DNA of 61,523 nucleotides from a virus. Lineage: Duplodnaviria; Caudoviricetes. The stretch is from positions 1 to 61,523 of the IMG/VR virus record IMGVR_UViG_3300043548_000080; one strand, given 5' to 3'. Numbering within the stretch: the stretch's first letter is position 1; each line of letters begins with the position of its first letter. The translations under genes and the position numbers were made by a program. Shown piece after piece: positions 32,991 to 51,541 of this stretch. Under the pieces are notes generated by a model. The model did not search any database. It was not told where the DNA came from and worked only from the letters and a program-made list of their open reading frames with translations.

Positions 32991-33087
32991 GATGGTGTTT
33001 CCTCGGTTGACGTTGACAGAATTTATTCTAATGACCCAGCATAGTCCAGACCATTAGGACAAACCCTATGTCGGGTTTGTACTAGGA

Positions 33088-33729
33088 TTAGTGTTTGTTG
33101 ATCTTGATAACACGCATCATTTTCTTCCCGTGGGCAGGGTAGGCGATGACGGGAATGGTTTTGTCATAGCAGGCACGGCATCCATTGCATTTACCATCAT
33201 GCTCATAGGCACGGCACAGGACGGCACCATCAGGCACGTTAGAGGCATCAGGGATGATGGTGCTGCCGTGTCTGGCATCGAAGGTGCCATCAATGCTATC
33301 GGAAGAGAATCGCACCATGACATTGGGCAGAGCCTGCATACGATGAATGACGCTAGCAAACTTAGGAAACTTCATCATGCGAGTAGGCAACCAATGTTTC
33401 ACCCACGTCGTGGCTTGCATAACTTGCAGCATTTTCTCTGCAAGCCCAATGGCATACATGTCACCGCTATCGAACCAACGGAAATACCTTGCGCTATCAA
33501 GCGCAACAACCATATCGGAAACCCATTCATCCCTTTCCCAATCAACGCGATTAGCAAGCCTAGGTGCTTTGACATTGGGGTAATTGTAATTACCCGTGGT
33601 GGCGTAGCAACCCGAGCATGCAGGCACCAGAGAACCATCGAGATTGACACTACCGGGACAAGTGTCCAAAGCCTGCAGGGACCACGACAAGATACCGTCC
33701 AGCTTAGATGTCTTTGAAAGCTTGAGCAT
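33088..33729 (-). CDS. GP88-family (radical-SAM-like) phage protein
   Basis: TCPGS..ACSGCYA, YFRWFDSGD, HWLPTR, C..CNGCRACY. Confidence 0.7.
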   Translation of the reverse strand: MLKLSKTSKLDGILSWSLQALDTCPGSVNLDGSLVPACSGCYATTGNYNYPNVKAPRLANRVDWERDEWVSDMVVALDSARYFRWFDSGDMYAIGLAEKMLQVMQATTWVKHWLPTRMMKFPKFASVIHRMQALPNVMVRFSSDSIDGTFDARHGSTIIPDASNVPDGAVLCRAYEHDGKCNGCRACYDKTIPVIAYPAHGKKMMRVIKINKH

Positions 33730-33762
33730 GACGTTTTCCTTTCCTGCCGTTGTCGGCGTGTT

Positions 33763-33808
33763 GTGTTGCGATGGAGTTATTTAAGCACGGCTAATAAATC
33801 CGAGTAAA
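33763..33808 (-). promoter_or_regulatory. Putative first early promoter
   Basis: TTTACT-18-TTAAAT followed 5 nt later by CATCGCAACAC. Confidence 0.45.
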
Positions 33809-34214
33809 GCGTAGGGTTTTCCTGGCGCATGTGCGTGTGTGTGTGCGTAGGCGCGTGTGCGTGTGCGGGCGCACACGTTGACGTAATGACGGTGCGTAAG
33901 CAAAGACTGTGCCAGATCTGTTGGGGTAAACCCTCGAAAACGCGCAGGAGCTCCTAAGTAAATTTTTGAAGGGCAAGGTAAGGGCTAGGGGTGAAAAACG
34001 ATCCTGTGCTGTTTAAACGCGTTTTAGCGGCATCGGGTTTACCCTGATGAATTGATGTTGCGGTGCAGCATGGCATGGTTGTTGCTAGGCCAGGCTAAAT
34101 AAGCAACGGCTTATATAAGGAAATGCTTATGTGTCCTGGCTTGCGCGTATGTGCGCGTATGTGTGTGCGCTGGCGCAGGCCGGTGAAGGTTGTTGCATAC
34201 ACAGACTCAAGGGT

Positions 34215-34245
34215 TGTGGATAACCTGTGGATAACCTGTGGATAA
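34215..34245. promoter_or_regulatory. Three tandem perfect DnaA boxes
   Basis: TGTGGATAA at 34215, 34226 and 34237 (reverse complement of TTATCCACA), 11-bp period. Confidence 0.8.
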
Positions 34246-34300
34246 CTTTTAACCTGACCCCATTTTTTTCGATTCTGAGTCTATGTTGCAGATACTGCTC

Positions 34301-34313
34301 TAAGTCGTTGATT
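34301..34313 (-). promoter_or_regulatory. IHF consensus site
   Basis: AATCAACGACTTA matches WATCAANNNNTTR. Confidence 0.6.
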
Positions 34314-34756
34314 TACAAGACTTTTCTGGCTTTCATGGCGCCGATGGCTAACCCTGCCTGATGGCGACACGGCAGGCTCGACGCGGCGCTGGCGGCGCTG
34401 GTGGGGTGGGCCTGGGCCACCGGGGGGTACAGCGTTATTTGTATATACCTCCCTACACAGATCTGGTTTTTTACCTTAGTTACGTCACCATATATCAACA
34501 CAGCCTCCAACACACCACAGCCTAAGTTGTTGTCCTATCTCTTCTTTTCTTTTGATGTTTCATGCAACCGATGTTGTCATACGTTGTCGCTGACAGCTAT
34601 GCCGATGTCCTCACAGACAACACAGCCTCAGCAGGGGCCTCTACAGCCTCTTCCAGCAACACAGCCTATGCACCCTACGCTGAAGCCTGCACAGGGGCTC
34701 TAAAGCCTTGGTTTCTGAGCAGGGCATGTTAAAGAGCAACAAAGACAACAAAGGGC

Positions 34757-34784
34757 TTGACACAGGTGTGTTGTTGTGTATAAC
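34757..34784 (+). promoter_or_regulatory. Sigma70-like promoter at the start of the late arm
   Basis: TTGACA-16-TATAAC with upstream TG. Confidence 0.7.
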
Positions 34785-34790
34785 ATAGCC

Positions 34791-35281
34791 TTGTCTGCTT
34801 CACGGACGTCTACACCTGGGTGAAGCAATGAAGACAAAGATGCCTACCAGGGGTGAGCAACAAAGGCATCAACGTGGGGCTAGGGTCTAGAGCGTGTTGT
34901 GGGCAGCTTCAGTGAGCTGTAATAGTCTGGACTGAACACTGAATAAGCTTGCTAAGCTTTTTGAGGCTTAGTAGGCAGAGCTATGTCTATATAGTTATGT
35001 AGACTGATGTAGACAGAGAGTAGTTCTAAAGGGTTCTGATGGTGTTATTGAAATAGTCAGTGTTATATCAATCTACACTAATCAGCATCGGAAAAGACCT
35101 ATATAGCAAGACAGAACAATAATAAGTGCTAATAGCCTCTAACACCGCTAATTAAAGCTATTTCATAATGTGAAATGTGCTGATAGAATAACATCAGCGA
35201 TATCATCTACATTAAACAGGTACTTCGTACCAGACTATGTAGTCTATATAGCCCTAAACAACAAAGAGCTTTTTTGTTGTT
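34791..35281 (+). ncRNA. Candidate structured non-coding RNA (~490 nt)
   Basis: ORF-free, starts just after the promoter, many hairpins with G-U pairs, long-range complementarity, ends in a hairpin. Confidence 0.4.
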
Positions 35282-35558
35282 AACAAAAGCCGCTAGGCTT
35301 TTTCTGTTTCCCTTAAAGCACCCGATGTTTCAAACAAGAGAACAACTTCAACATAAGCTCCATAAGTGGCCTCATAGCGTTTATTCAGAGGCAATGAAGG
35401 AAGTGTTTAAGAAAGAAGAGCGTTGTTCTTCTGTTGGTTTTCATTCTGATGTTTATTTCGTAAGAGCCGCTATGGAAAAGCATAGTGGTTTGTTGTTCCC
35501 TTTGTTTCTCGTTGAGAGAGCAATGAAAAAAGAAGGATGGAAAAATGTCAACTCCTGA
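35274..35558 (+). CDS. Hypothetical protein (likely start MFQTREQ)
   Basis: FHSDVYFVRAAME motif; overlaps next gene. Confidence 0.5.
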   Translation: MLLTKAARLFLFPLKHPMFQTREQLQHKLHKWPHSVYSEAMKEVFKKEERCSSVGFHSDVYFVRAAMEKHSGLLFPLFLVERAMKKEGWKNVNS

Positions 35559-35802
35559 TAACACCGTAAATATTGCACCAGCAGCGCGGCTGACGGCTAT
35601 TACGAAGAGTGATAGCACTGTTTATTCACCGCTCATTAGAGCCATCTATGTTGGTGTTGGAGGCAACATCAATGTTGTTGACAGTGCTGGAAACACTGTG
35701 TTGTTTGTTGGCGTTCCTCAGGGCGCTGTGTTGGGTCCGTTTGCAGTGTCTAAGGTGATGAGTGCTAGCACCACTGCTAGTTCTATGGTGGGGTTCATTT
35801 AA
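35545..35802 (+). CDS. Head spike base protein (GTA Rcc01079-like)
   Basis: AITKSDST..RAIYVGVGGNINV..VSKVMSASTTA; precedes a fibre gene. Confidence 0.7.
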   Translation: MSTPDNTVNIAPAARLTAITKSDSTVYSPLIRAIYVGVGGNINVVDSAGNTVLFVGVPQGAVLGPFAVSKVMSASTTASSMVGFI

Positions 35803-37557
35803 GTGTCTGGTCTTTCTTTGTCAACGGCTATGTCTATAGCCAATATTGGTGGTAGACCGTATAGTCCTTCTGCTTTGTTTGTAACAGGGGCTAATGGTAT
35901 TTGGTATGAACCAAGCGACCCCACCACCCTGTTCACCACCTCCACCGGCACCACGCCCTGCGCTGTTCCTGGCTCTGGGTCTCAGGTGCTGGTGGGGTTG
36001 ATGCTGGATAAGTCGCAGGGTTTGGTGCTTGGGTCGGAGTTGCTGGCTGATTCTGGATTTAATAACGCAGCTTCGTGGCAATCAAACGCTGGCGTCACAA
36101 TTTCTGGTGGCGAAGCCATTTGGAACACGGCTACCAATAGTGTATATGTCCGCCAACCGCTCATAACCACAGCAAATACCTATTATGAATTTACTGTCGT
36201 CTGTTCTTCGTACACGGCAGGAACGGTATTTGTTGGTATTGGCGCCGGCGGAACAAATCTTACGAGCTTTCCAATCAACGCGGTAGGTACTGTTACATTT
36301 AGAATCAACGTCGAAGCAAACTCTGGAACTGTTTGGCTTTTGACTCCCACAGGAGGAGCGCAACTTAGCATCACAAGCTTTTCCGTTAGGCAGGTTTCCG
36401 GCAACCACGCCATCGCCTTCAACGACACCACCGCACGCCCGGAGTTGAGTGCGCGGGTGAATTTGTTGACGTATTCGGAGCAGTTTGATAATTCGTATTG
36501 GACGAAAGTTGCTTCTACAATAGCGGCCAACACTGGCATTGCGCCAGATGGAACAAATACTGCTGACAAGCTGATTGAAAACGCCGCAACAACAATTCAT
36601 TACGTATCAAGAATTACGGCCGACTTTACGGCTGGCGTGACTTACACGCTATCGGCTTACGTTAAAGCTGCGGAGCGTCAATGGGTCGTTCTTGGATTTC
36701 TAAACGAATCTAATCGTTCTGTTTGGTTTGGTGTTGCGAACGGCGTTGTTGGAACAATGCAATCCAATGTTGCTACAGCGTCAATTCAGGCTGTTGGAAA
36801 TGGTTGGTATCGTTGCGTAATGACGACAACCAGCGCAAGCGCACAGCCATATCCAAGTATTGCAATAGCCAGCGCGGACGGCACCAGCAATTACACCGGC
36901 GACGGCACCAGCGGCATCTTCATCTGGGGCGCCGACCTCCGCCCCGCCAACATCGGCTCTGCCATCCCGTCCTACCAGCGGATTGCAGACCAGTACACCT
37001 ACGACAGCAACGGCTTCCCGACCTATCTGCGCTTTGACGGCGTGGATGACTCGATGTATACGCCTGCGAGCATCAACTTCAGCGGCACGGACAAGATGTC
37101 GGTGTTTGCGGGGGTGCGGAAGTTGAGTGATGTGAGCGCAGGGTGTCTGGTAGAGCTTTCATCTAACTACTCAGCAAACGACGGAACATTTACGGGTTTT
37201 GCGCCGGGTTCTAATTTCCCGACCGGATACGATTGGCCGTATCGTGGAACCGCTACGGTAGCAACGCCGGGTTTTGCAGCGGAGGCCCCGACCACCAACG
37301 TAATTTCTTCTGCGTACAACATTTCTGCGCCTAGCGCGGTAATTAGATCAAACGGCGCACAAGTGTCTTCCGCTACTACAGGCGCGGGCACCGGCAACTT
37401 TGGCAACTACCCGCTGTTCATAGGTCGCCGCAACAACGCCACGTTCCCTCTCAACGGCCACCTCTACAGCCTAATCACCGTAGGCACACAACTGCAAAGC
37501 GGCAGCATCACGGCTACGGAGCAATACGTTGCCGGAAAGACAGGGGTGCAGATATGA
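35803..37557 (+). CDS. Head spike / fibre protein with lectin-like domains
   Basis: GIWYEPSD, NLLTYSEQFDN..TADKLIE, NGWYRC, GIFIWGA, YLRFDGVDD. Confidence 0.7.
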   Translation: MSGLSLSTAMSIANIGGRPYSPSALFVTGANGIWYEPSDPTTLFTTSTGTTPCAVPGSGSQVLVGLMLDKSQGLVLGSELLADSGFNNAASWQSNAGVTISGGEAIWNTATNSVYVRQPLITTANTYYEFTVVCSSYTAGTVFVGIGAGGTNLTSFPINAVGTVTFRINVEANSGTVWLLTPTGGAQLSITSFSVRQVSGNHAIAFNDTTARPELSARVNLLTYSEQFDNSYWTKVASTIAANTGIAPDGTNTADKLIENAATTIHYVSRITADFTAGVTYTLSAYVKAAERQWVVLGFLNESNRSVWFGVANGVVGTMQSNVATASIQAVGNGWYRCVMTTTSASAQPYPSIAIASADGTSNYTGDGTSGIFIWGADLRPANIGSAIPSYQRIADQYTYDSNGFPTYLRFDGVDDSMYTPASINFSGTDKMSVFAGVRKLSDVSAGCLVELSSNYSANDGTFTGFAPGSNFPTGYDWPYRGTATVATPGFAAEAPTTNVISSAYNISAPSAVIRSNGAQVSSATTGAGTGNFGNYPLFIGRRNNATFPLNGHLYSLITVGTQLQSGSITATEQYVAGKTGVQI

Positions 37558-38009
37558 GCGACGTTTTTAGAACAATGATTGTTACAGCCGCAGACGCGCC
37601 GCTCGTCAGAGCTATTGCGGACATGTTCGCAGGCTCTCCGCAGAACATGTGGATTGTGGGCCTGAGCGCTGACGGCAAAGCCCCGGCGACGCACTACATC
37701 AGCACGGGCGGTGTACCGGAAGGCTATCAGGTGATGGCGCCGTGGCAGGTCTGGGAGCAAGACGAAACCGGCGCATGGCAGATGACCGACAGCTACCCTG
37801 GTCAGCCTGACATCGTGTGGCAAGCCTGTCAGCAACCTATTCCCAACACCGAGTCGCCGCAGCCAGCAGTGCCCTGCGCGCTGAAAGAGGTTGAGGGTGT
37901 CTTCGCCAGAGCCGACATGACGGCGCAAGACCCCTTCGTTGCGATGGGGCGCTTGGGCTTACAGCTTATTCAAACTAGTATGGAAGAAGACAATGCCTTA
38001 TATGACTGA
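37554..38009 (+). CDS. Hypothetical fibre-associated protein
   Basis: LSADGKAPATHYISTG; ATGA overlap with fibre gene. Confidence 0.6.
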   Translation: MSDVFRTMIVTAADAPLVRAIADMFAGSPQNMWIVGLSADGKAPATHYISTGGVPEGYQVMAPWQVWEQDETGAWQMTDSYPGQPDIVWQACQQPIPNTESPQPAVPCALKEVEGVFARADMTAQDPFVAMGRLGLQLIQTSMEEDNALYD

Positions 38010-38253
38010 TGGCAAGCGAGACTATAAGAAGCAACAAAAATACGACGGCAAGCCTTCCGTCATTGCCGACAGAGCCCAAAGAAACGCTGCTAGAGCTAAA
38101 TTGAAGAAAGAGGGTGTTTCTGTTGCTGGCAAGGATGTTGCCCATAAGCTTGCGTTAAGCAAAGGCGGCTCTAATGAGAGGAGCAATTTGATGGTGCAGG
38201 CTCCGTCAAAGAACAAGAGTTTTTCTCGTAAGAAGGATGGGTCAATGAAATGA
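37993..38253 (+). CDS. Small basic HNH-like protein
   Basis: RAQRNAAR..GKDVAH..KGGSN..NL. Confidence 0.6.
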   Translation: MPYMTDGKRDYKKQQKYDGKPSVIADRAQRNAARAKLKKEGVSVAGKDVAHKLALSKGGSNERSNLMVQAPSKNKSFSRKKDGSMK

Positions 38254-38501
38254 AGACACCAGCTTGGACCCGTAAGGAAGGAAAAGACCCCGCAGGGGGC
38301 CTTAATGCCAAAGGCAGGGCCTCTTACAACAAAGCCACAGGAGGCAATTTGAAGCCTCCAGCGCCCCATCCAAAGACAGAGAAGGACAAGGCTAGGCGTA
38401 GCAGCTTCTGTGCGCGTATGAGCGGAATGCCAGGCCCTATGAAGGATGAGAAGGGAAAGCCGACAAGGAAGGCGTTGTCTCTCAAGGCTTGGAACTGCTG
38501 A
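38250..38501 (+). CDS. Small basic phage protein
   Basis: GGLNAKGRASY..RRSSFCARM..WNC. Confidence 0.7.
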   Translation: MKTPAWTRKEGKDPAGGLNAKGRASYNKATGGNLKPPAPHPKTEKDKARRSSFCARMSGMPGPMKDEKGKPTRKALSLKAWNC

Positions 38502-38502
38502 C

Positions 38503-38874
38503 ATGGCCCGCACCAACGAAGCCCTATGGGAGAAGGCTAAGGCAGAAGCCAAAGCCAAGATGGGTGGTAAACATTCTGCTAGGGCTATGCAGCTAGCAGG
38601 AAAGCTGTACAAAGAAAAAGGTGGTGGCTATAAAGGCCCCAAAACAGAAGCTCAGAAGAGCATGTCTAAATGGACCAAAGAGTCTTGGACAACGAAGTCT
38701 GGAAAGCCTTCGTCAGAGACAGGAGAGCGTTATTTGCCTGAGAAAGCCATCAAGGCATTGACGTCTTCTGAATATGCTGCTACAACGCGGGCTAAGCGTG
38801 AAGGCACCCGTCAAGGGAAGCAGTTTGTTGCTCAGCCTAAGAAGGTGGCTGAGAAGACAGCTAAATACAGATAG
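38503..38874 (+). CDS. Small basic phage protein (DUF5872-like)
   Basis: SARAMQL..YKEKGGGY..KWTKESW..GERYLP. Confidence 0.65.
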   Translation: MARTNEALWEKAKAEAKAKMGGKHSARAMQLAGKLYKEKGGGYKGPKTEAQKSMSKWTKESWTTKSGKPSSETGERYLPEKAIKALTSSEYAATTRAKREGTRQGKQFVAQPKKVAEKTAKYR

Positions 38875-38882
38875 GAAATATC

Positions 38883-39581
38883 ATGGTTCTCCCACTCATT
38901 GCTAGGGGCGTTGGTGCTCTTGCTGCTAAGCAGGCGTCTAAAGAAGTTGCTAAAAGAGCGCCAGGACGCGCTGAAAAATTCATGGGTATGGCAGATGAAG
39001 TGAAGCCTCTTCGTCTCACTGACGATGTTATGCGTGCTGGTGAAAGAGCCGCTGGCCCTGCTGCAGAGAGAGGAATGTCTGCCGCGTCAAAGGCTGGTCT
39101 TGCTACTGCTGCTGCTTTAGGTGCTGGTATGGGTGTTGGTGCTTTGCGTTCTGGTAAGGAAGAAAAGACGACAAAGGCTAGCGAAGCAGCAAGAAGTGCT
39201 GAAGAAGACAATAAAGCACCTAGCACAAAGACTGCAGCGGCTAAGAAGAGCGCTACACGCATTTCTTTTGAACGTGAGTTTGCTAGGAACAGGGCTGCTG
39301 GCGAAAGAGAATTCACATTCAACGGTGAAACATACACTACCCGTTATGATGGAGAAACAGCAGCCCAGCATCGCAAGAAGATGGAAGATATTGTTGATAA
39401 AGAAAACAGGTTGCGTGCTAGAGACGACGAAACTATGAGAAAGGCTAGAGAAGAGAAGCAGACACTAAAAGCTGATGAGATGCGTAAGGGCGGTATGGTG
39501 AAGAAGCAAGCCTATGCCAAGGGTGGCATGGTTGCTGCCAATTGCGGTGCTTCTATGAAGCCTCAGCAAAGGAAGAAGTGA
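38883..39581 (+). CDS. Hypothetical charged protein with two AxGG-type tags
   Basis: 232 aa; EFTFNGETYTT; MRKGGMV, YAKGGMV. Confidence 0.65.
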   Translation: MVLPLIARGVGALAAKQASKEVAKRAPGRAEKFMGMADEVKPLRLTDDVMRAGERAAGPAAERGMSAASKAGLATAAALGAGMGVGALRSGKEEKTTKASEAARSAEEDNKAPSTKTAAAKKSATRISFEREFARNRAAGEREFTFNGETYTTRYDGETAAQHRKKMEDIVDKENRLRARDDETMRKAREEKQTLKADEMRKGGMVKKQAYAKGGMVAANCGASMKPQQRKK

Positions 39582-39748
39582 TGCCTGCTACAAAGATGAA
39601 GATGTGTGAAGGATGTTCCAGCCCTGCTGCATGTAAGAAGGCTGGGAAGTGTCTGATGAAGGACAAGACCAATAAGCCTCAGCGTGGAGCTAAGGGCATG
39701 GCTGTCCTCATTGCTGTTGGTATGCCTAAGAAGGGTAAGGGGCGCTGA
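39581..39748 (+). CDS. Small Cys-rich basic protein
   Basis: CEGCSSPAACKKAGKC. Confidence 0.55.
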   Translation: MPATKMKMCEGCSSPAACKKAGKCLMKDKTNKPQRGAKGMAVLIAVGMPKKGKGR

Positions 39749-39749
39749 T

Positions 39750-40328
39750 ATGGCTACGAAGAATCCTGTAAAGAATCTTAAAGCTAAACTGGATAAAGAA
39801 ACGGCAGGTTCTGGTAGACGCTTTGGCGAGGAAAAGCCTGTTCAAAGGAATGTTGATAATTACGAAGACTATGTAAATCGTTCCCCTAAGGAAAGCAATG
39901 CCAACCGTTGGGCAGCTTCTGTCAAGGAAGACGTTGTAAAGTCTCAAAAGACAGATGTTAAGCGTCTCATCAAGGGTGTTGCTGGTAAGGTCAAAGAAGG
40001 CTCTACAGAGGCTGAAGAAAAGTTTGGCAGAAAGCAAATGAAAGCTGCTGCTGTTAGAGGTGGATTGCGTACAGCCAGTAGGCTTGGGTATCTAACAGGT
40101 GCAGCTGGTACTGGATATGCCGTTGGTGCCACGGCTAAAGAACTGTATGACAATGCCAAGGAAGGCAGGGAGCGTAGACGCCTTCAAGAAGAGAATGAAA
40201 AAGCTTTGGATAAAGCTGGCGACATCATCAATAGAGAAGATGTTGTTGGTCTTGCTCGCGGTGGTGCCGTAGCCAAGAAGATGGCTAAGGGTGGTGTTGC
40301 TAAGAAAATGCTTACAAAAAGGAAATAA
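39750..40328 (+). CDS. Hypothetical basic protein with AxGG-type tags
   Basis: C-terminal LARGGAV..MAKGGVA. Confidence 0.6.
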   Translation: MATKNPVKNLKAKLDKETAGSGRRFGEEKPVQRNVDNYEDYVNRSPKESNANRWAASVKEDVVKSQKTDVKRLIKGVAGKVKEGSTEAEEKFGRKQMKAAAVRGGLRTASRLGYLTGAAGTGYAVGATAKELYDNAKEGRERRRLQEENEKALDKAGDIINREDVVGLARGGAVAKKMAKGGVAKKMLTKRK

Positions 40329-40329
40329 T

Positions 40330-40704
40330 ATGCCCTCCTGCGGAACAAAGAAAATGGCTAAAGGTGGTGAAGTAAAGAAGAAGGTTGAGGCCAAGAAGCC
40401 TACTCCTGTTCTTGACAAAAAGATGAAGCCTGAGGACATGCCTCCTAATAAGGCTGCTATGGATATGATGCGTGAATGGGAAGATAAAGAAAAGCGTCGT
40501 AAGATGGGAGAGAGATATGAACAAATCATGCCTCCTTCTGGTCTTGCAAAGGGCGGCGCTATCCAACAAGCCAAAGTTGGGAAGGTGATGAAGGAATTCA
40601 AAGCCGGTAGCCTCCACAGTGGCAAGGGTGGCAAAGTGGTTAAGAGCCCTAAGCAAGCAATTGCAATTGCGTTGTCTGAGGCTCAACGGATGAAGAAGAA
40701 GTAA
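40330..40704 (+). CDS. Basic protein with C-terminal DUF6496-like domain
   Basis: KVMKEFKAGSLHSGKGGKVVKSPKQAIAIALSEA. Confidence 0.65.
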   Translation: MPSCGTKKMAKGGEVKKKVEAKKPTPVLDKKMKPEDMPPNKAAMDMMREWEDKEKRRKMGERYEQIMPPSGLAKGGAIQQAKVGKVMKEFKAGSLHSGKGGKVVKSPKQAIAIALSEAQRMKKK

Positions 40705-41933
40705 TGTCAATAACAAGCTACCCAGCGCTGGTAACACTAAATGAGCCCATCTCTATTGGTGGTACTAGCGCTGATGCTTTTGGGCGCACTCGTGTTAGTG
40801 CTCCGGTCACGCTTTTTGACAGCCAAAACAGATATGCAAAGAGTGCTGATTTCGATGAGTCTCTATCTGGTAGCGCTACTTCTACTCATGCTCCTAATGA
40901 ATCTACTGTCCTCCTCACTGTATCCACCACATCAGGAGATAAGGTAGTCAGAGAGACCAAGAGAGTGTTTGCTTACCAGCCAGGGAAGTCTCTGCTGGTG
41001 ATGAACACTTTTGTCATGCCTACAACACATGTCAATTTACGTTGCCGTGTAGGTTTCTTTGGTGAACAAAACGGTGTGTTCTTTGAACGCAGAGGCTCTC
41101 TTCTGCGTATGGTGCGACGTACATACACCAGTGGTGGTGTTGTAGACAACATTGAAGAACAAACTGCTTGGAATGGTGACAAGCTGGATGGAACAGGTCC
41201 TTCTGGTATTTCTATAGACACAACAAAGGCGCAGATTTTCTGGCAAGACTTTGAGTGGCTTGGTGTTGGCAGTGTCAGAACTGGCTTTGTTATCAACGGC
41301 AAATTCATTGTCTGCCACACATTCAATCATGCAAACATTCTCGCACTCGTCTACATGACAACGGCAATGTTGCCTGTTCGTTATGAGATTGAGAACCTTG
41401 ACACCACAGGCCCAAGCAGCAGAACAATGAAGCAAATCTGCTCCACCGTCATCAGCGAAGGGGGCTATGAAAAGAGAGTGCCTTTGCAGACGGCTAGAAG
41501 GACCGCAGCAGCCTCTGTGGGTACAACAGTGGTTCCGTTGCTGTCTCTTCGATTAGACAGCGCTAGGCTTGATTCTGTTGTCATTCCTGATGGCTACAGT
41601 GTGTTACCCATTGCCTCTGCTTCAACAACGTTTGAAATACAGCTTATCAAGAATGCAACGCTGACATCTCCCTCTTGGGCACAGACAACATCTGACAATG
41701 TGGAATTTGACACATCAGCCACTGCTGTCTCTGGTGGCACCATCGTGGATAGCGTATACACTGTAGAGAGCAACCAGACGTCCGATTCTGTCTCCAATAA
41801 TAGAGACTACAATTTCTCTATGCAGTTTGGAAGAACACTGGCAGGGGTGAGCGACATCTACACTCTTGCTGCTCGTACTCTCAGCGGCACTCAGAGTGCC
41901 ATTGCCACCTTCTCTTTCTGGGATTTGACATGA
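40704..41933 (+). CDS. Putative virion structural protein (beta-rich)
   Basis: DAFGRTRVS, YQPGKS, FEWLGVGSVRTGF, LPVRYEI. Confidence 0.65.
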   Translation: MSITSYPALVTLNEPISIGGTSADAFGRTRVSAPVTLFDSQNRYAKSADFDESLSGSATSTHAPNESTVLLTVSTTSGDKVVRETKRVFAYQPGKSLLVMNTFVMPTTHVNLRCRVGFFGEQNGVFFERRGSLLRMVRRTYTSGGVVDNIEEQTAWNGDKLDGTGPSGISIDTTKAQIFWQDFEWLGVGSVRTGFVINGKFIVCHTFNHANILALVYMTTAMLPVRYEIENLDTTGPSSRTMKQICSTVISEGGYEKRVPLQTARRTAAASVGTTVVPLLSLRLDSARLDSVVIPDGYSVLPIASASTTFEIQLIKNATLTSPSWAQTTSDNVEFDTSATAVSGGTIVDSVYTVESNQTSDSVSNNRDYNFSMQFGRTLAGVSDIYTLAARTLSGTQSAIATFSFWDLT

Positions 41934-42265
41934 CGGGAAACAAGAACAGATCAGTTGCTAAGGTATTGACTACGTCAACGGCTGATGTCTATGTTGTTCC
42001 TGCGGCTTTTAAGGCTGAGGTAGATTCCGTTGTCATCACCAACACCAGTGCTAGTGATGTTAGGATGGACTTGAACTGGTATGAAGCAACGACAGCAACG
42101 TCGTATGCTCTTGGCAACGATGTCATCATCAAAGCCAATAGTGTTGTTCAGCTAACCAATGCTCTCTACCTAGACAAGAATGACAAAATCACAGGAAGTG
42201 CTGCGGTTGATAGCGTCATCACTGTGACGGTGAGGACTAGGGAATACTTTGCTGAAAGGTTGTAA
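41930..42265 (+). CDS. Small beta-rich putative virion protein
   Basis: 111 aa; VYVVP..VITN..LYLDKNDKI. Confidence 0.6.
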   Translation: MTGNKNRSVAKVLTTSTADVYVVPAAFKAEVDSVVITNTSASDVRMDLNWYEATTATSYALGNDVIIKANSVVQLTNALYLDKNDKITGSAAVDSVITVTVRTREYFAERL

Positions 42266-42267
42266 AC

Positions 42268-42471
42268 ATGTTTGCACCACTCATCGCTATCTGTCTCTTG
42301 GGCGTTGAGTGCAATTTGTTTACAAGAGCAGACAAGAAGATGTATCAGACGTATGAAGAATGTGAAAAAGCAACCACCAAAGACGTAAAAGAAATTTGGG
42401 AGCGTTTGCGTTCTCGTAATATTGATGCGACAATCGGTTTTAAGTGCGAAGTACCAAAGGATAGGGTCTAA
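42268..42471 (+). CDS. Small Cys-containing hypothetical protein
   Basis: MFAPLIAICLLGVEC..YEECE..FKC. Confidence 0.55.
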   Translation: MFAPLIAICLLGVECNLFTRADKKMYQTYEECEKATTKDVKEIWERLRSRNIDATIGFKCEVPKDRV

Positions 42472-42833
42472 TGAAAAAAGAATTGACAGATCAGCAGAAG
42501 AAGTTTCTAGAGGTGTTGTTCTCTGAGGCTAACGGCAACCCAACCAGGGCTAAGGTGTTGGCTGGTTACAGCGAAGGCTATAGCACTAAAACGCTCATGG
42601 CTGGGTTGAAAGAGGAGGTGTTGGAGGCTACCAAGCTCTACATCGCAATGAACGCTCCTAAGGCTGCTATGGCTGTTATTGGAGGCATTGACGATCCTAC
42701 GCAGCTTGGCATCAAGGAAAAGCTGAACGCTGCTAAAGACCTGTTAGACCGTGCTGGACTCATCAAGACAGAGAAAATTGAGGTGAGTGGGGGTGGTGGT
42801 GTTATGTTGTTGCCTGCTAAGGACAATGAGTGA
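42471..42833 (+). CDS. Putative terminase small subunit
   Basis: LTDQQKKFL..AKVLAGYS HTH-like N-terminus, AAKDLLDRAG; upstream of TerL. Confidence 0.6.
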   Translation: MKKELTDQQKKFLEVLFSEANGNPTRAKVLAGYSEGYSTKTLMAGLKEEVLEATKLYIAMNAPKAAMAVIGGIDDPTQLGIKEKLNAAKDLLDRAGLIKTEKIEVSGGGGVMLLPAKDNE

Positions 42834-43365
42834 AAGAAATCTAGGTAGTTGGATACTTCCACAGCCAGTAGAAAAGGAGCGATATGTTCCAATCCCCAGA
42901 TGGAGACACACATTTGTTGTTCCTTTTGGTTATGAGGAGAGGGAAGGAGACACTGAATGGCTCTATCCCATCAAAAAAGAGCTAGATGTTCTTGAACTTG
43001 CTAAGAAACATGTCAAGAAATACACATACACAGATGTAGCTGCTTGGATGACTACACAAACAGGACGAAAAATCACTGGTCCTGGTTTGAAATATCGTAT
43101 AAAAAGTGAAATAGGAAGGCATAAGCGTGCTGGATTCTATCGATCCCTTGCTCGACGGTACAAAGAAGCTCTCCAGAAAGCCCAAGAGTACGAAGAAAGG
43201 CTTGGAAAAGCCGAAAAAACAGAGTTCTTTGATTCAGACCCTTTCATCCAACTCAGCAGAGATTGGGAACAAGCAGATAGAGATACCAAAGGGGCTGGAA
43301 GAGGAAAACAACGTCATCTTCAAGCCAAATCCAGGCCCTCAGACAGCATTTCTTGCAGCACCTGA
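42826..43365 (+). CDS. Hypothetical DNA-binding protein overlapping TerL
   Basis: VPFGYE..YTDVAAWM..TGRKITGPGL, reminiscent of recombinase-type DNA-binding domains. Confidence 0.55.
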   Translation: MSERNLGSWILPQPVEKERYVPIPRWRHTFVVPFGYEEREGDTEWLYPIKKELDVLELAKKHVKKYTYTDVAAWMTTQTGRKITGPGLKYRIKSEIGRHKRAGFYRSLARRYKEALQKAQEYEERLGKAEKTEFFDSDPFIQLSRDWEQADRDTKGAGRGKQRHLQAKSRPSDSISCST

Positions 43366-44698
43366 GCGGGAAGTGCTCTATGGAGGGGCTGCAGGAGGAG
43401 GAAAGAGCTATGCGTTGCTTGTTGACCCTCTACGTTACATCACCCATCCACAGTTTTCAGGTCTAATTCTTCGTCACACCACTGAAGAGCTTAGAGAACT
43501 TATTTGGAAGAGTCAAGAACTCTATCCAAAGGTTATTCCAGGCATTGTCTGGAGCGAAAGAAAGATGCAATGGCAGCATCCCAATGGAGGAAGACTGTGG
43601 ATGTCCTACCTAGACAGGGATGAAGATGTATTGCGTTATCAGGGTTTGAGCTTTGTCTATGTGGCCTTTGATGAATTGAACCAGTGGAATAGCCCTTTTG
43701 CATGGAACTACATGCGAAGCCGTTTGCGGACAGCAGCGTCTGATTTGCCTGTGTTTATGCGAGCAACCACTAACCCAGGTAATGCTGGTCACTGGTGGGT
43801 GAAGAAGATGTTCATTGATCCTGCTCCTCCTGGGCAGGCTTTCTGGGCAACAGACATTGAGACAGGTGAAACACTCACCTATCCTAAAGGACATGAAAAG
43901 GAAGGACAAGCGCTGTTTAAGCGTAGGTTCATTCCAGCAACTTTGAGAGACAATCCGTATCTGTACAGCAATGGCGACTATGAAGCTATGCTGTTGTCTC
44001 TTCCTGAAACACAACGTAGGCAGCTTCTTTATGGTGATTGGGACATTGCAGAGGGTGCGGCTTTTCCTGAATTTAATCGGAGGCTGCATGTTGTTGAGCC
44101 TTATCGCATCCCTACTGATTGGCCTCGTTTCAGAGCCTGCGACTACGGCTACGGTAGTTGGTCAGCAGTGCTCTGGTTTGCCGTAGCTCCTGATGAGTCT
44201 TTGGTGGTATATCGTGAGATGTATGTAACGAAGGTGTTGGCTGAAGATCTAGCCAATATGGTGTTGAATGCGGAAGATGGGGAGAAGATAAGATACGGTG
44301 TTCTTGACAGTTCTACTTGGCATAAAAGAGGTGATACAGGTCCTTCCATTGCTGAGCGAATGATATTGAAGGGATGCAAATGGCGTCCTTCTGACAGAAG
44401 TGCTGGTAGCAGAATTTCAGGCAAGAACGAAATTCATAGGCGTCTTCAAGTTGATGAGTTCACTGAAAAGCCCCGCATCACTTTTTTCAACACTTGTACC
44501 AACATCATTTCACAGCTTCCTCTAATCCCATTGGACAAGAACAATCCTGAAGACATTGATGTGAAATATGCTAACGATCACTTGTATGACGCATTGCGTT
44601 ATGGCGTGATGTCTCGTCCTCGTAGCAAGTCTGTGTTTGATTTTGACGGTGATTCAAATCAACGGTTTGCACCAGCGGACAGCCGTTTTGGTTATTGA
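43127..44698 (+). CDS. terL: Terminase large subunit
   Basis: YGGAAGGGKS Walker A, VAFDEL Walker B, ATTNPG, ACDYG and DHLYDALRY nuclease motifs. Confidence 0.93.
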   Translation: MLDSIDPLLDGTKKLSRKPKSTKKGLEKPKKQSSLIQTLSSNSAEIGNKQIEIPKGLEEENNVIFKPNPGPQTAFLAAPEREVLYGGAAGGGKSYALLVDPLRYITHPQFSGLILRHTTEELRELIWKSQELYPKVIPGIVWSERKMQWQHPNGGRLWMSYLDRDEDVLRYQGLSFVYVAFDELNQWNSPFAWNYMRSRLRTAASDLPVFMRATTNPGNAGHWWVKKMFIDPAPPGQAFWATDIETGETLTYPKGHEKEGQALFKRRFIPATLRDNPYLYSNGDYEAMLLSLPETQRRQLLYGDWDIAEGAAFPEFNRRLHVVEPYRIPTDWPRFRACDYGYGSWSAVLWFAVAPDESLVVYREMYVTKVLAEDLANMVLNAEDGEKIRYGVLDSSTWHKRGDTGPSIAERMILKGCKWRPSDRSAGSRISGKNEIHRRLQVDEFTEKPRITFFNTCTNIISQLPLIPLDKNNPEDIDVKYANDHLYDALRYGVMSRPRSKSVFDFDGDSNQRFAPADSRFGY

Positions 44699-44710
44699 TG
44701 TAGGAATAAT

Positions 44711-46825
44711 ATGGCAAAAGAAATGGATACACCCTTCACTGACGACAAGGCTATTGCTTTGCCGGATACAGAGGCGTTCAAGTCTTCATCGCTTTCTCGC
44801 TTTGTTGAAGAGCGGTTTAGCCGTTCTAAGACGGCTCGTCGTTTTGATGAAGAACGGTGGCTCCGGGCCTACAGAAACTACAGAGGTCTTTACGGTCCTG
44901 ACACAAAATTTACAGACTCTGAGAAGAGTCGTGTCTTTCTCAAGATTACGAAGGTGAAGACGTTAGCGGCATATGGGCAAATCACTGATGTGCTGTTTGC
45001 CAACAACAGCTTTCCGTTGTCTGTGGAGCCTACAACGCTTCCTGAAGGGGTTGCAGAGCATGTCCATGTGGATACAAACCCACAAGCTGCTAATACGCCT
45101 CAGCAAGGCGCAGAGAGTCCCAATTTGGGATCATTGTTTGGCTACAAGGGTGATGGTAAGGATTTGCCTCCCGGCTCCACTCCGCAGTCCCTCATGGGAC
45201 GTCTTGGGCCTCTAAAGAATGCTCTTGAGGGTCTTGACGTCAAGGAAGGCCCTGGTGTAACACCCACCTCAATCACCTTCAGCCCTGCAATGGTGGCTGC
45301 TAAAAAGATGGAGAAGAAGATTAAGGATCAGCTTGATGAGAGCAATGCTACCAAGCATTTGCGCTCTACAGCGTTTGAGATGGTGTTGTTTGGCACCGGC
45401 ATCATGAAGGGTCCATTTGCTGTTGACAAGGAATATGCCCGTTGGGGCCAAGATGGAAAGTATGATCCTCTCATTAAGACAATGCCTCAAGCTGCTCATG
45501 TTAGCGTCTTTAATTCCTATCCCGATCCTGATGCAACATACATGGAAGAGGCGGGCTATTTCATTGAAAGACACAAGCTGAGCAAGACTCAGTTGTTGGC
45601 TTTGAAGAAGCGCCCAATGTTCCGAAACAGTGTTATTGATGCGCTTGTTGACGAAGGTCATAATTATATCAAAGAGTATTGGGAAGACGATCTAAACGAT
45701 TTTGCTCCTAATGCTGAGGTGGAACGCTGGGAAGTGTTGGAGTTCTGGGGTGGTGTCACCATTGAGATGTTGGAAGAGAACGACATTAACATTCCTGAAG
45801 AACTCAAAGACAAGACTGAAGTACAGGCAAACATTTGGTATAGCAAGGGCAAGATTTTGCGTCTTGTCCTGAATCCGTTTAAGCCTTCGCGTATTCCCTA
45901 CTATGCCGTTCCTTATGAACTGAATCCATATTCGTTCTTTGGTGTGGGTATGGCTGAGAACATGGACGACAGCCAAACCCTTATGAACGGTTTTATGAGA
46001 ATGGCTGTGGACAACGCTGTATTGTCTGGAAACCTCATCCTTGAAGTGGATGAAACCAATCTGGTTCCTGGTCAGGATATGACCATCTACCCAGGTAAGA
46101 TTTTCCGTAGACAAGGCGGTGCTCCGGGTCAAGCCATCTTTGGTACTAAGTTCCCTAATGTGGCTGCAGAGAACATGCAGCTTTTTGACAAGGCACGGGT
46201 GTTGGCTGATGAGTCAACGGGTATGCCTTCGTTTGCTCATGGACAAACAGGTGTGACAGGTGTTGGTAGAACAGCCTCTGGCATCTCTATGCTGATGAAT
46301 GCAGCTAGTGGCAACATCAAGACTGTTATCAAGAATGTGGATGACTACCTTCTTCGTCCTCTTGGCGAAGCATTCTTTGCTTTCAATATGCAGTTTGATC
46401 CGACACCGGATATTGTTGGTGACTTGGAAGTGAAAGCAAGGGGCACTGAGAGCCTGATGCAGAATGAAGTGAGAAGTCAGCGTCTGTTGCAATTCCTTCA
46501 AATCATTCAGAATCCGACACTGGCTCCGTTTGCCAAGCTGCCTTATATTGTTCGTGAGATTGCTAAGAGCATGGACCTTGATCCTGATCTTGTGTCTAAC
46601 AACATGGATGAAGCCGCTAAGCAAGCCTTTGTTCTGCAGAAGATGGCACCGCCTCCTGCACCAGCGGCACCTGCTGAAGGAGCACCACAGCCCGGTGGAG
46701 CACCTCCTGTTTCTGACATGACAGGTGGTGGTGGTGGCAACATTGGTGTTGGTGCTGCTGCTCGTCCGGGTGAGCAAGGCTTCAGTGCTGCTCCTCAGGC
46801 TCCGCAAGGGATGGCAATGCAATGA
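44711..46825 (+). CDS. Portal protein
   Basis: 704 aa after TerL; FGTGIMKGP, YPDPDA, YPGKIF, RTASGISMLM. Confidence 0.85.
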   Translation: MAKEMDTPFTDDKAIALPDTEAFKSSSLSRFVEERFSRSKTARRFDEERWLRAYRNYRGLYGPDTKFTDSEKSRVFLKITKVKTLAAYGQITDVLFANNSFPLSVEPTTLPEGVAEHVHVDTNPQAANTPQQGAESPNLGSLFGYKGDGKDLPPGSTPQSLMGRLGPLKNALEGLDVKEGPGVTPTSITFSPAMVAAKKMEKKIKDQLDESNATKHLRSTAFEMVLFGTGIMKGPFAVDKEYARWGQDGKYDPLIKTMPQAAHVSVFNSYPDPDATYMEEAGYFIERHKLSKTQLLALKKRPMFRNSVIDALVDEGHNYIKEYWEDDLNDFAPNAEVERWEVLEFWGGVTIEMLEENDINIPEELKDKTEVQANIWYSKGKILRLVLNPFKPSRIPYYAVPYELNPYSFFGVGMAENMDDSQTLMNGFMRMAVDNAVLSGNLILEVDETNLVPGQDMTIYPGKIFRRQGGAPGQAIFGTKFPNVAAENMQLFDKARVLADESTGMPSFAHGQTGVTGVGRTASGISMLMNAASGNIKTVIKNVDDYLLRPLGEAFFAFNMQFDPTPDIVGDLEVKARGTESLMQNEVRSQRLLQFLQIIQNPTLAPFAKLPYIVREIAKSMDLDPDLVSNNMDEAAKQAFVLQKMAPPPAPAAPAEGAPQPGGAPPVSDMTGGGGGNIGVGAAARPGEQGFSAAPQAPQGMAMQ

Positions 46826-47043
46826 AGGAAAAGCCTTGGCTTAAACGAATGGTTCCTATGACGTCTCCTCTACTCTGGGAAGCCTTTGATGACATGCTCA
46901 ACTATTCTATTGAGCTACAACGAAAGCAGATGGAACAGACAGACAACATGGTAGAGGTGTATAGAGCACAGGGATCTATTACGTCGTTGAAACGGCTAAA
47001 GCAATTGAAGGAAGAGATACAAAATGCTCAGGAGAAAAAGTAA
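46822..47043 (+). CDS. Small conserved protein after portal
   Basis: VYRAQGSITSLKRLKQLKE. Confidence 0.7.
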   Translation: MKEKPWLKRMVPMTSPLLWEAFDDMLNYSIELQRKQMEQTDNMVEVYRAQGSITSLKRLKQLKEEIQNAQEKK

Positions 47044-49208: not shown

Positions 49209-49334
49209 CGTACAATAAAACAAGCTAGCTCTGGAGCGACCTAACTAGCTAAGAAACAACAAGTCGCGTATTGGCTACCTATTTCCCAGGCAACATAGCC
49301 TGCCACAGATAGCCCCATTCTAAAAGGAAACGAG

Positions 49335-50201: not shown

Positions 50202-50204
50202 CTA

Positions 50205-50233
50205 TTGACAAAACGATGCTGATGTGATTTAAC
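50205..50233 (+). promoter_or_regulatory. Sigma70-like promoter upstream of major capsid gene
   Basis: TTGACA-17-TTTAAC. Confidence 0.55.
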
Positions 50234-51511: not shown

Positions 51512-51517
51512 TGAGAC

Positions 51518-51541
51518 AGGGAAGGCTAGTCCTTCCCTTTT
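51518..51541 (+). terminator. Intrinsic terminator after capsid gene
   Basis: GGGAAGG-CTAGT-CCTTCCC-TTTT. Confidence 0.75.

Follow-up and report, generated by a model that had tools for sequence, protein, structure and literature searches.

A conserved, transcribed RNA fold with covarying loop-loop pairing heads the late transcript in a freshwater podophage of the HMO-2011 type

The putL and putR RNAs of phage HK022 are cis-acting processive antiterminators that work without protein factors. In the pRNA of phage phi29, loops join hand in hand through complementarity that covaries. In aquatic habitats, podoviruses of the HMO-2011 type rank among the most abundant phage types; to our knowledge, they encode no RNA polymerase, and no antiterminator is known in them. 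Betaproteobacteria-1 (Rfam RF02932) is reportedly an orphan motif from a survey of 224 motifs. Passages of the main text of the 224-motif survey (PMC5737381) do not mention Betaproteobacteria-1. Here we compare with these systems an RNA of which we found no description in the literature under Betaproteobacteria-1 or HMO-2011-type phages.

The window, which is the whole stretch of DNA analyzed (61,523 nucleotides), is the complete 61.5-kb genome of a freshwater HMO-2011-type podophage and showed no DNA similarity to cultured phages. An earlier note had proposed that positions 34791-35281 encode one structured RNA of ~490 nt, transcribed first in the late arm. As the note stated, this stretch holds no long ORF; the ORFs of at least 30 aa that touch it are 34700..34837 (minus strand, 45 aa), 35170..35283 (plus strand, 37 aa) and 35274..35558, the last being a 5' extension of the downstream gene. 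The 77-aa product of that gene is 51-91% identical in amino acid sequence among relatives and had no Pfam or PHROGs family; its AlphaFold model was helical with low confidence (pLDDT 58). The late (virion) arm downstream of the leader spans ~38 kb. The gap at 33730-35324 is a divergent control region with iteron-like repeats, and within it three tandem copies of TGTGGATAAC, which we take to be the reverse complement of the DnaA box, were found at 34215-34246. The features of the leader are listed in Table 1.

Table 1. Features of the leader and its surroundings (positions in the window).
Feature	Position	Strand	Basis or remark
P1, sigma-70-type promoter TTGACA (34757-34762), 16 nt, TATAAC (34779-34784)	34757..34784	+	sequence and scans
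H1, 7-bp stem GCTTCAC/GTGAAGC; 16-nt loop GGACGTCTACACCTGG, almost invariant	34797..34826	+	covariation
Loop-loop (kissing) pairing CCTGG (34815-34819, H1 loop)/CCAGG (34847-34851, H2 loop)	34815..34851	+	covariation
H2, 7-bp stem GATGCCT/AGGCATC; 18-nt conserved loop ACCAGGGGTGAGCAACAA	34839..34870	+	covariation
P3/H3, extended hairpin GGTCTAGA.C.TGT/ATA.G.TCTGGACT; apical GCAGCT/AGCTGT	34884..34933	+	RNAalifold
H5, 13-bp stem with G-U pairs	34947..34976	+	single-sequence folds
Variable spacer: repeats GCTAAT/GCTGAT..AGAAYAAC and TTTCATAATGTGA, palindromes, local hairpins	34995..35324	+	covered by contig X6
Three CTATATAG palindromes	34987-34994, 35099-35106, 35244-35251		motif count
A/U-rich hairpin AACAACAAA/TTTGTTGTT	35257..35281	+	sequence and fold
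Terminator-like hairpin AAAAGCC-GCTA-GGCTTTT and T-rich run, 22 nt upstream of first gene	35285..35309	+	scans
First late-arm gene, 77-aa protein	35325..35558	+	follows leader in every case

The TTGACA-16-TATAAC promoter described previously, here called P1, is real and conserved in relatives. It was the top sigma-70-like site within 33000-36500, scoring 11/12 in a scan that allows C at the last position, and the transcription start predicted from it lies at ~34791-34793. Of the 11 leaders that were scanned, 10 had a promoter of the form TTGACA-16/18-TA[TAC]AAC 26-33 nt upstream of where the RNA begins; in the exception, L144, the promoter is located further upstream of the RNA.

Contigs from RNA libraries covered the core in four of four runs from four studies, and no RNA contig covered 34300-34774 in the same runs. 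In three of the four runs, contigs had 5' ends at 34803-34808 (34807 in X6; 34803 in X16; 34803 and 34808 in X17), with adapter sequence directly before the ends in X16 and X17. cDNA libraries usually lose ~10-15 nt at true 5' ends, and the ends at 34803-34808 fit this loss; a self-cleaving ribozyme as the source of the shared 34803 end was unsupported. The X18 contig, whose depth was low (3.6), began at ~34775-34781, upstream of the predicted start. The X6 contig was continuous from 34807 to 35717 with 100% identity and passed the hairpins at 35257-35302 into the late genes. Such contigs prove neither ends, strand nor level, and DNA may be present in RNA libraries; likewise, the gap in cover at 34950-35320 in X16-X18 is not evidence of absence. 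The start at the promoter and the read-through in X6 indicate a 5' leader and not a discrete 0.5-kb RNA. Thus, the RNA is transcribed first in the late arm, as the earlier note had it, since contigs start in the P1 start region and reach the late genes. The discrete ~0.5-kb transcript that it had expected was replaced by a continuous RNA contig, which ran through the proposed end at the hairpin 35257-35281.

One X17 contig carried adapter sequence directly after 34932, the 3' end of helix P3. The X17 fragments have an adapter presumably of the read-2 type before 34803 and the reverse of one presumably of the read-1 type after 34932, an order that fits plus-strand RNA if the library was dUTP-stranded. 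The end at 34932 would fit a processed, stable small RNA. It is possible, though on the unlikely side, that an sRNA of ~130-190 nt is cut or trimmed from the 5' end of the P1 transcript and acts in trans on a target in the host or the phage, for example in host takeover, immunity or anti-defence, while the late genes are driven separately. Contig depth, which was 12-21 over the core and 5-10 over the gene, points in the same direction, although such depths cannot rank. However, the X6 contig runs without a break from 34807 into the genes, and neither the sequence nor the scans revealed a terminator directly 3' of the conserved core. By the criteria that pick out the hairpin at 35285-35309 in the window, a terminator-like hairpin lay between the RNA and the first gene in just 2/8 family leaders; a terminator at this place therefore does not characterise the family. 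With 2/8 leaders and a hairpin read through by the RNA contig, we did not find a discrete RNA with a family-conserved intrinsic terminator.

The conserved RNA fold is limited to ~34797-34976, about 180-200 nt, and the remainder of the proposed ~490-nt RNA is a spacer of variable length. RNAalifold with eight sequences recovered H1, H2 and P3/H3, with compensatory pairs at 7/46. In a MAFFT alignment of nine sequences, 99.4% of cells paired and 8/37 pairs changed on both sides, compared with 0-2 when the pairing was slid; the covariation score was 0.267 against 0.124 in shuffles and was reached by 0/500 of them. When MW202701 was added to the nine sequences in a model-fitted alignment, 21/37 pairs changed on both sides with 98.1% paired (slid controls, 2-9; shuffles, 0/500). 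This covariation rests on ~6-7 independent lineages.

Each of the seven H1 pairs showed changes of both partners in one or more members, with 100% of cells paired, and members had CCACAG/CTGTGG, CTGTAG/CTACAG or GTAGTC/GGCTAC as alternative stems. The note had drawn H1 with an outer TTGTCT/AGACAA extension; comparison supported the GCTTCAC/GTGAAGC part, which covaries, and not the extension. The H2 stem was invariant in nine members and was replaced by CCATCT/AGATGG in MW202701, so that four H2 pairs change on both sides. Compensatory pairs numbered 3/12 in P3 and 5/6 in H3. At the position of H5, a hairpin appeared in 7/7 members folded (single-sequence folds, read by eye), and its apical sequences differed: CTAAGCTT/AGGCTTAG, CTATGC/GCATAG, CTTAGCTT/AAGCTGAG and CTAAAGC/GCTTTAG. 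All the local stems listed previously exist in the sequence, and comparative support was obtained for H2, H3 and the 13-bp stem. The proposed stems TTTCAT/GTGAAA and GCTGAT/ATCAGC turned out to be recurring sequence motifs without covariation.

All five loop-loop pairs between H1 and H2 were paired in 100% of cells, and two were compensatory, with CCTTG/CAAGG in L063 and CCGAG/CTCGG in L143. Like phi29 pRNA, this is a podovirus RNA with two complementary, covarying loops, and its transcription opens the virion-gene arm. We consider it most improbable, however, that the loops pair between molecules to form a ring for virion assembly or packaging. In this phage, the large terminase is ordinary and the portal is of the SU10 type, so that the packaging machinery is not of the phi29 type; the short linker of 9-25 nt favours intramolecular pairing, which is probably what occurs here, unlike in pRNA. 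Further, no Rfam family matched at E up to 10, and hence no pRNA model if Rfam holds one.

P3/H3 contains the invariant G-U pairs U116-G160 (10/10) and G124-U154 (9/10), which would be A-C mismatches if read on the opposite strand. The invariant G-U pairs thus fit the plus strand only, and together with the covariation and the RNA-library contigs they agree with the earlier suggestion, made from G-U tolerance, of a plus-strand RNA. The core is not coding, as each of the six frames had at least one stop in 10/10 members, and the variable columns were distributed 32/38/36 over the three codon positions (10 members). We concluded that the core is a real, conserved, transcribed, plus-strand folded RNA heading the late-gene transcript.

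In some variants, the P3 loop houses a homing endonuclease (HNH) gene and the basal helix is preserved; H5 is missing from all three HNH-cassette variants. The cassette was not identified as a group I intron, there being no RF00028 match in L142 or L198 at E up to 10, and with this cut-off the group I intron model likewise matched nothing within 34300-35700. The Rfam scan placed the group I intron (RF00028) of the window phage at 16019-16230 (96.3 bits).

The folding energy of the 491 nt exceeded that of shuffles on the plus strand (z -3.74; 0/100 shuffles), as anticipated for a structured RNA, but the minus strand also gave z -2.90. The excess came from the 3' part and was strand-symmetric (34995-35305: z -3.27 on plus, -3.29 on minus); the core alone (34790-34994) was unremarkable, with z -0.79 and -1.47 on the plus and minus strands, respectively. 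Segment 34995-35324 is a variable, repeat-rich spacer that is transcribed within the leader and is not part of the conserved fold. Its length ranges from ~225 to 530 nt across relatives, and its identity to the window was 0.49-0.56 in 5/6 relatives, compared with 0.61-0.93 for the core.

These results bear on the proposal that all of 34791-35281 is one large ncRNA, held together by long-range helices and ending at the hairpin 35257-35281, which we now consider very unlikely. The z-score of the whole stretch speaks for it. In addition, CTGAT-GTAGA (35004-35013) and TCTAC..ATCAG (35072-35085) pair in L141 with one compensatory change and one wobble (by eye), and the closing stem TTCTGAT/ATCGGAA becomes TTTTGAT/ATCAAAA in L144. 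Against this, the 3' part is near background identity in those five of six relatives, varies more than twofold in length, and has the same z-score on both strands. TAGTCTGG, for which a long-range partner had been proposed, pairs instead with GGTCTAGA in the local, covarying P3. The long-range pairs GGGCTA/TAGCCC and GATGTAGA/TCTACATT are not retained in more distant relatives, and the partners of GGGCTA/TAGCCC and CCAGACTA are missing from the L204 group. Finally, the hairpin 35257-35281, through which the RNA contig passes, is lacking at the equivalent place in L141.

The spacer has further sequence features. CTATATAG occurs in only three copies in 61.5 kb, against 0.30 expected, and three copies were found in 0/100 shuffles; it recurs in the leaders of relatives, including RF02932 carriers, and adjoins a consensus promoter in L084 and L086. 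Taken with the tandem TGTGGATAAC and the iteron-like repeats, three CTATATAG found nowhere else in the genome could mean that the region contains DNA-level signals only (a replication origin, operators and promoters of the divergent control region) and that the RNA is a by-product. The strand-symmetric folding excess of the 3' part and the position of CTATATAG against the promoters of L084 and L086 are consistent with this explanation, which suits the 3' spacer and fails for the core. Core stems and the loop-loop pairing swap sequence yet stay paired, the G-U pairs mismatch on the other strand, and the contigs from RNA libraries begin where the start is predicted; we therefore regard it as even less probable than the large ncRNA. 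By eye, GTCTAC has loop-like and antisense copies in the spacer, which are poorly conserved in L141. Pairing of the H2 loop with 35492-35510 in the small gene is likely due to chance because that segment is constrained by the protein.

Rfam contained nothing relevant for the whole window at gathering thresholds or for 34300-35700 at E up to 10. In particular, the RF02932 model matched nowhere along the record with E up to 10, and its gathering score of 49.4 bits was not reached. The earlier note had not recognised a known family, and the Rfam result agrees for the window itself, but syntenic relatives carry RF02932, which has a similar two-hairpin kissing design. RF02932 was detected in L084, L086, L152 and L155-L160 with 67-86 bits. 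Among 15 viral contigs with the small late gene, nine carry RF02932 in the slot (seven scanned directly and two via the overlapping loci L086/L088, L088 being taken as identical to L086), four carry this RNA and two carry neither. Two relatives have a third sequence type in the slot, after the same type of promoter. In related phages, a TTGACA-17-TAAAAC promoter immediately precedes RF02932, and the homologous small gene follows it at a distance of 370-500 nt.

Both RNAs appear to start with two 5' hairpins with loops of 16-20 nt, in which the 3' part of loop 1 pairs with the 5' part of loop 2, followed by GGGNNAG; in RF02932, the loops would pair as GUGG/CCAC (L084) and GCAG/CUGC (L086), as judged by eye. 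The third domain differs, being a 50-nt P3/H3 plus H5 here and a 6-bp hairpin (16-nt loop) with a CGGGU tail in RF02932. The RF02932 model aligned to MW202701 with H1 to H1 and H2 to H2 at a weak 15.8 bits (E 0.03 per genome, 0.69 for all Rfam). Conversely, model R1, built for this RNA, had the RF02932 site as its best match in L084 3300-3800 with filters off (a weak 5.1 bits, E 0.024), and found 0/9 RF02932 loci with default filters. The core RNA is probably a distant relative of the orphan RF02932 and would do the same job. Betaproteobacteria-1 thereby gains a biological setting, as the leader of a phage late arm, and is joined by a sister family that escapes current models.

What the job may be is suggested by analogy with the HK022 put RNAs. 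These share with the present RNA a build of hairpins with conserved unpaired bases and a position immediately after the promoter of a long phage operon, which host RNA polymerase has to traverse. Unlike put, the present RNA is about three times larger, has loop-loop pairing and occurs once per genome, and its effect on termination is only predicted. We tentatively favour the reading that the core is a put-like or EAR-like leader acting in cis to sustain elongation by host RNA polymerase along the late operon, while placing it somewhat below an even chance. The core domain would act in cis, while being made, on its own transcription complex, so that the host enzyme would read past stop signals within this long operon. 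Such signals could be the hairpins at 35257-35309 and a strong terminator-like site at 51518-51538 after the capsid gene, consisting of an 8-bp hairpin with five GC pairs and a T run. The contact surface may be the almost invariant unpaired bases GGACGUCUAC, GGGGUGAGC and CAACGUGGGGCU, and RF02932 in the same slot of related phages would perform the same job.

The late arm has features that would call for read-through, namely a lack of strong sigma-70-like sites and the hairpin after the capsid gene. Within 35000-54999, no sigma-70-like site scored above 9/12, and 13 were found against 18.5 expected. In the leaders of this RNA's own family, candidates for a second promoter reached only 9/12 (6/8 leaders have one). 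RF02932-type and third-type relatives, in contrast, have a consensus promoter (11-12/12) just upstream of the late genes, which runs counter to the cis-leader view because it makes P1 and the RNA less likely to be needed for late expression there. The RNA would then be the unique product of P1 in these relatives, which speaks for the trans-acting sRNA discussed above, and the X17 end at 34932 and the rarity of a terminator just after the RNA in the family (2/8 leaders) are further points against the cis leader. Moreover, RF02932, the positional counterpart, is classed by Rfam as an sRNA, and three RNA types in one slot resemble exchangeable cassettes. On the other hand, a gene acting in trans would have no need to stand so precisely at the start of the late arm in all relatives.

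Invariant unpaired bases framed by covarying stems, in a 5'-leader position, are also typical of aptamers. We consider it improbable, however, that the core is a riboswitch-like sensor that binds a small molecule or ion and sets transcription into the late genes. No expression platform lies next to the core; the distance from the RNA 5' end to the ATG of the first gene is long and variable, at 431-735 nt in the eight cassette-free members (1156 nt when the cassette is there), just 2/8 leaders have a terminator, and no Rfam riboswitch family matched at E up to 10.

A broader form of the cis-leader reading is more doubtful than that reading itself: an exchangeable RNA module, comprising this family, Betaproteobacteria-1 and the third type, might directly reprogram the host polymerase without a protein factor for processive antitermination over ~38 kb. 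If so, an orphan Rfam motif would gain a function and a widespread new class of polymerase-binding RNAs would emerge, with a fold so important that the basal helix is kept where a homing endonuclease gene sits in the P3 loop. The conserved, transcribed, pseudoknotted leader RNA is a concrete candidate for late-gene control in HMO-2011-type podoviruses; with a loop-loop pairing that covaries and an endonuclease gene sitting in a loop, it is well suited to work on structure and mechanism.

Neither this RNA nor RF02932 was found above threshold in the marine phages HMO-2011, CRP-1 and CRP-3, and 59 loci found via the tail protein had no similarity to the region. In pattern scans, one of five viral matches was due to chance; 45/54 metagenome loci had no blastn match to the core, and L190 had only a 38-nt match, which was treated as chance. 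Of 51 loci from genomes, 48 had no match and two had matches of only 31-33 nt. The single genome match was a contig of 1.66 kb that had been binned with a Pseudomonadales MAG; the RNA was absent from 4/4 other genomes of that MAG's family, and we therefore claim no host. In the GenBank record MW202701.1, the family RNA overlaps a 36-aa CDS on the opposite strand, which is probably spurious.

The window is the entire viral record (61,523 bp; completeness rating 100%), and the sequencing runs in which its DNA occurs are of freshwater origin. It encodes a family A DNA polymerase, a primase-helicase, PhoH, an integrase, a large terminase and an SU10-type portal protein, the last 69% identical to those of Puniceispirillum phage HMO-2011 and Roseobacter phage CRP-1; no DNA similarity to cultured phages was found. 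The minus strand carries the genes at ~12.4-33.7 kb; those at 1-12.4 kb and from 35.3 kb onwards to the record's end lie on the plus strand. The 1.6-kb gap separating the two arms contains 34791-35281, which the earlier note proposed to be a single ~490-nt structured RNA. Upstream are repeats of TGTGGATAAC, a DnaA-box consensus in reverse complement. These repeats in the divergent control region are likely a replication origin, because many other viral contigs (L061, L062, L064, L066, L081 and others) have the same repeat beside the GP88-like gene.

Features of the phage genome and of related loci (window coordinates unless a locus is named)
Feature	Position	Strand	Remarks
G+C-rich TGTGCG-type repeat clusters (two)	33830-33872, 34140-34176		on either side of the TGTGGATAAC DnaA-box-like repeats
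Three tandem exact TGTGGATAAC copies	34215-34246		11-bp spacing; T-rich stretch after; same 1.6-kb gap
Four direct repeats with ACAGCCT	34496-34672		upstream of promoter P1
H1; H2	34797-34826; 34839-34870	+	core RNA
P3/H3 hairpin; H5	34884-34933; 34947-34976	+	core RNA
13-nt motif TTTCATAATGTGA	35161-35176; L141; L204 group; L163 2318-2332		kept; positions differ, leaders otherwise little alike
HNH cassette	L142 558-1222; L198 and L217 297-1090 (minus strand)		in apical part of P3
Third, unrelated non-coding sequence, ~250-480 nt	L163 2006-2500; also L162		after TTGACA-17-TATAAC promoter
Three tRNA genes	12815-13059	-
Group I intron	16019-16230	-	96.3 bits; between ribonucleotide-reductase-domain ORFs 16218-17264 and 15488-15955
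Best late-arm terminator-like hairpin	51518-51538	+	8 bp, 5 G-C, T run; 7 nt past capsid gene 50444-51511

As the earlier note had stated, a TTGACA-16-TATAAC promoter (P1) is present at 34757-34784, the best match in 33000-36500; further, no long ORF crosses 34791-35281 and this region had no match in Rfam. The expectation of unusual folding held in part. The 491 nt folded better than shuffled sequences (plus-strand z = -3.74, minus-strand z = -2.90), but the excess was located in the 3' part. When the stretch was split, z was ordinary for the 5' 205 nt (-0.79 plus, -1.47 minus) and equal on the two strands for the 3' 311 nt (-3.27 and -3.29). Thus, palindromes in the 3' part account for the thermodynamic excess, and the folding-energy signal gives no argument for RNA over DNA.

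Syntenic loci were located through neighbouring proteins. The 77-aa first late gene (35325-35558) as query yielded L141, L142 and L144, and the GP88-like gene led to L063, which aligns over 33854-35541 (nhmmer E 2e-88). A scan for conserved-block patterns gave true homologues in 4 of 5 viral, 8 of 54 metagenome and 1 of 51 genome matches. The covariance model of the core, built from nine homologues, also matched GenBank phage MW202701.1 (38.6 bits, E 2e-9). At L143 2619-2729 (MW202701.1 43380-43490), an annotated 36-aa hypothetical CDS overlaps the core on the opposite strand and is probably a spurious gene call.

Between the RNA 5' end and the end of P3, identity of the relatives to the window was 0.61-0.95; in the remaining leader it was 0.49-0.56 in five of six relatives and 0.79 in the closest. 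The conserved portion is the 5' core, not the whole stretch. RNAalifold predicted H1, H2 and the long P3/H3 hairpin from eight sequences; a 5-bp pairing of the H1 loop with that of H2 (CCUGG/CCAGG) was added by hand before pairs were counted. In a MAFFT alignment of nine sequences, 99.4% of cells were paired and 8 of 37 pairs changed on both sides; slid partners gave 0-2 such pairs and ~30-41% pairing, and none of 500 shuffles reached the covariation score. With MW202701 (10 sequences, in an alignment fitted to the covariance model and hence biased towards it), 21 of 37 pairs changed on both sides (slid controls 2-9; 0/500 shuffles): H1 7/7, loop-loop 2/5, H2 4/7, P3 3/12 and H3 5/6. Covariation supports each of these helices, on a basis of only about 6-7 independent lineages and with slid partners and shuffles as controls. 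The loop-loop pairing CCUGG/CCAGG becomes CCUUG/CAAGG in L063 and CCGAG/CUCGG in MW202701. Two G-U pairs, U116-G160 and G124-U154, never vary; the opposite strand would have A-C mismatches there. None of the 10 members has an open reading frame, and their variable columns lack a period of three.

Of the stems drawn previously, the 13-bp stem (H5) was a hairpin in all seven members folded, with differing apical sequences. The outer TTGTCT/AGACAA extension of H1 was not kept in relatives. The long-range pairs were likewise lost: TAGTCTGG pairs locally with GGTCTAGA instead, with a C-G to U-A covariation, and the CCAGACTA and TAGCCC partners are missing in the L204 group. We are highly confident that the core (~34797-34976) is a real, transcribed, structured RNA.

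A ~790-nt cassette replaces H3 to H5 in L142, L198, L217 and an RNA contig of run X16. It consists of a gene for a 150-aa HNH endonuclease (match to Pfam HNH at E 3.8e-10) and a ~230-nt tail. The flanks of L183 and L142 are nearly identical. By eye, basal P3 is kept across the insertion with both strands changed, from GGUCUAGA/UCUGGACU in L183 to AUUUAGA/UCUAAAU in L142, which suggests that the fold matters even with a mobile gene lodged in the RNA. The cassette matched no group I intron model, and its tail had no match in Rfam. Hairpin stems of the tail differ between L142 and L198 (GGGGCAATA..TATTGCTCC versus GAGAC..GTCTC); the insert may represent a spliced element or else another structured RNA.

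The idea of one fold across the whole stretch fails at 34995-35324, which has no conserved overall fold. The start codon lay 431, 535, 541 (two loci), 636, 687, 690 and 735 nt from the RNA 5' end, and 1156 nt from it in the inserted-gene variant. The 10-nt unit GAGCGTTTAT occurs in seven tandem copies in the L183 spacer (~1300-1400) versus three in the near-isogenic L142, which shows rapid change in spacer length. The interval holds the genome's only three copies of the palindrome CTATATAG (0.30 expected), repeated GCTAAT/GCTGAT..AGAAYAAC motifs and TTTCATAATGTGA, probably a protein-binding site. These motifs reappear in relatives in differing number and order, even where the RNA after the promoter is of another type. 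In the related loci L084 and L086, CTATATAG adjoins a consensus sigma-70 promoter immediately before the late genes. In our reading, 34995-35324 is regulatory DNA, made up of operators, promoters or iterons, and is transcribed too. Some local hairpins in it could be genuine RNA structures: by eye, the pairing of CTGAT-GTAGA with TCTAC..ATCAG survives one compensatory change between the window and L141.

RNA-library contigs (four runs, four studies) were compared over 34300-35900; being contigs, they prove neither ends nor strand nor level, and DNA contamination is possible in such libraries. No contig covered 34300-34774. Run X6 gave a single contig of 911 nt that spans 34807-35717 and is 100% identical; in X18 an L141-like variant is represented by a contig of low depth spanning 34781-35005. 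Sequencing adapter immediately preceded 34803 in contigs of X16 and X17, and 34808 in X17. These 5' boundaries lie 12-17 nt past the predicted start, an offset usual for cDNA libraries at a genuine 5' end. The RNA had been expected to end at the 35257-35281 hairpin, but the X6 contig shows it to run on through hairpins 35257-35309 into the first two genes. Taken together, the 5' boundaries, the empty upstream interval and this read-through speak for a late-transcript 5' leader rather than a discrete ~0.5-kb RNA.

Tentatively, the core is read as a leader that would act in cis on the polymerase transcribing the late operon. This role is favoured because in every relative the RNA, whatever its type, keeps its place at the very start of the late transcript, because its unpaired bases are almost invariant, and because the RNA contig runs through the leader hairpins. 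Further, strong sigma-70-like promoters are lacking in the late arm, second-promoter candidates are only weak in core-RNA family members, and after the capsid gene comes a good terminator-like hairpin, beyond which tail genes would need read-through. Against it, a terminator lies between RNA and gene in just 2 of 8 family leaders, and relatives carrying RF02932 (Rfam Betaproteobacteria-1 RNA) have their own consensus promoter ahead of the late genes. A single X17 contig, with adapter immediately after 34932 at the P3 3' end, is also compatible with a processed small RNA. Such a stable 5' fragment, acting in trans, is a somewhat less likely explanation than the cis-acting leader; others are less probable still.

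RF02932 occupies the place of the core in relatives whose small protein is ~62% identical (67-86 bits), immediately after a TTGACA-17-TAAAAC promoter. Fifteen viral contigs have the small gene; nine of them carry RF02932, four the window-type RNA and two (L162, L163) a third sequence. The RF02932 model had no match in the window, nor had the core model, with default filters, at RF02932 loci; by the family's own test the core RNA is not a member. On MW202701 the RF02932 model aligned H1 to H1 and H2 to H2 at only 15.8 bits. With filters off, the best match of the core model in a 501-nt piece of L084 was the RF02932 site (5.1 bits, E 0.024). By eye, the 3' part of loop 1 pairs with the 5' part of loop 2 in RF02932 members (GUGG/CCAC in L084, GCAG/CUGC in L086), as in the window-type RNA, and GGGAUAG follows, the counterpart of GGGUGAG in the window. 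The two RNAs appear to have a similar two-hairpin design and are, on balance, probably remote homologues. In the third type, a perfect consensus promoter ends 6 nt upstream of the small-gene ATG, suggesting that this mRNA may be leaderless.
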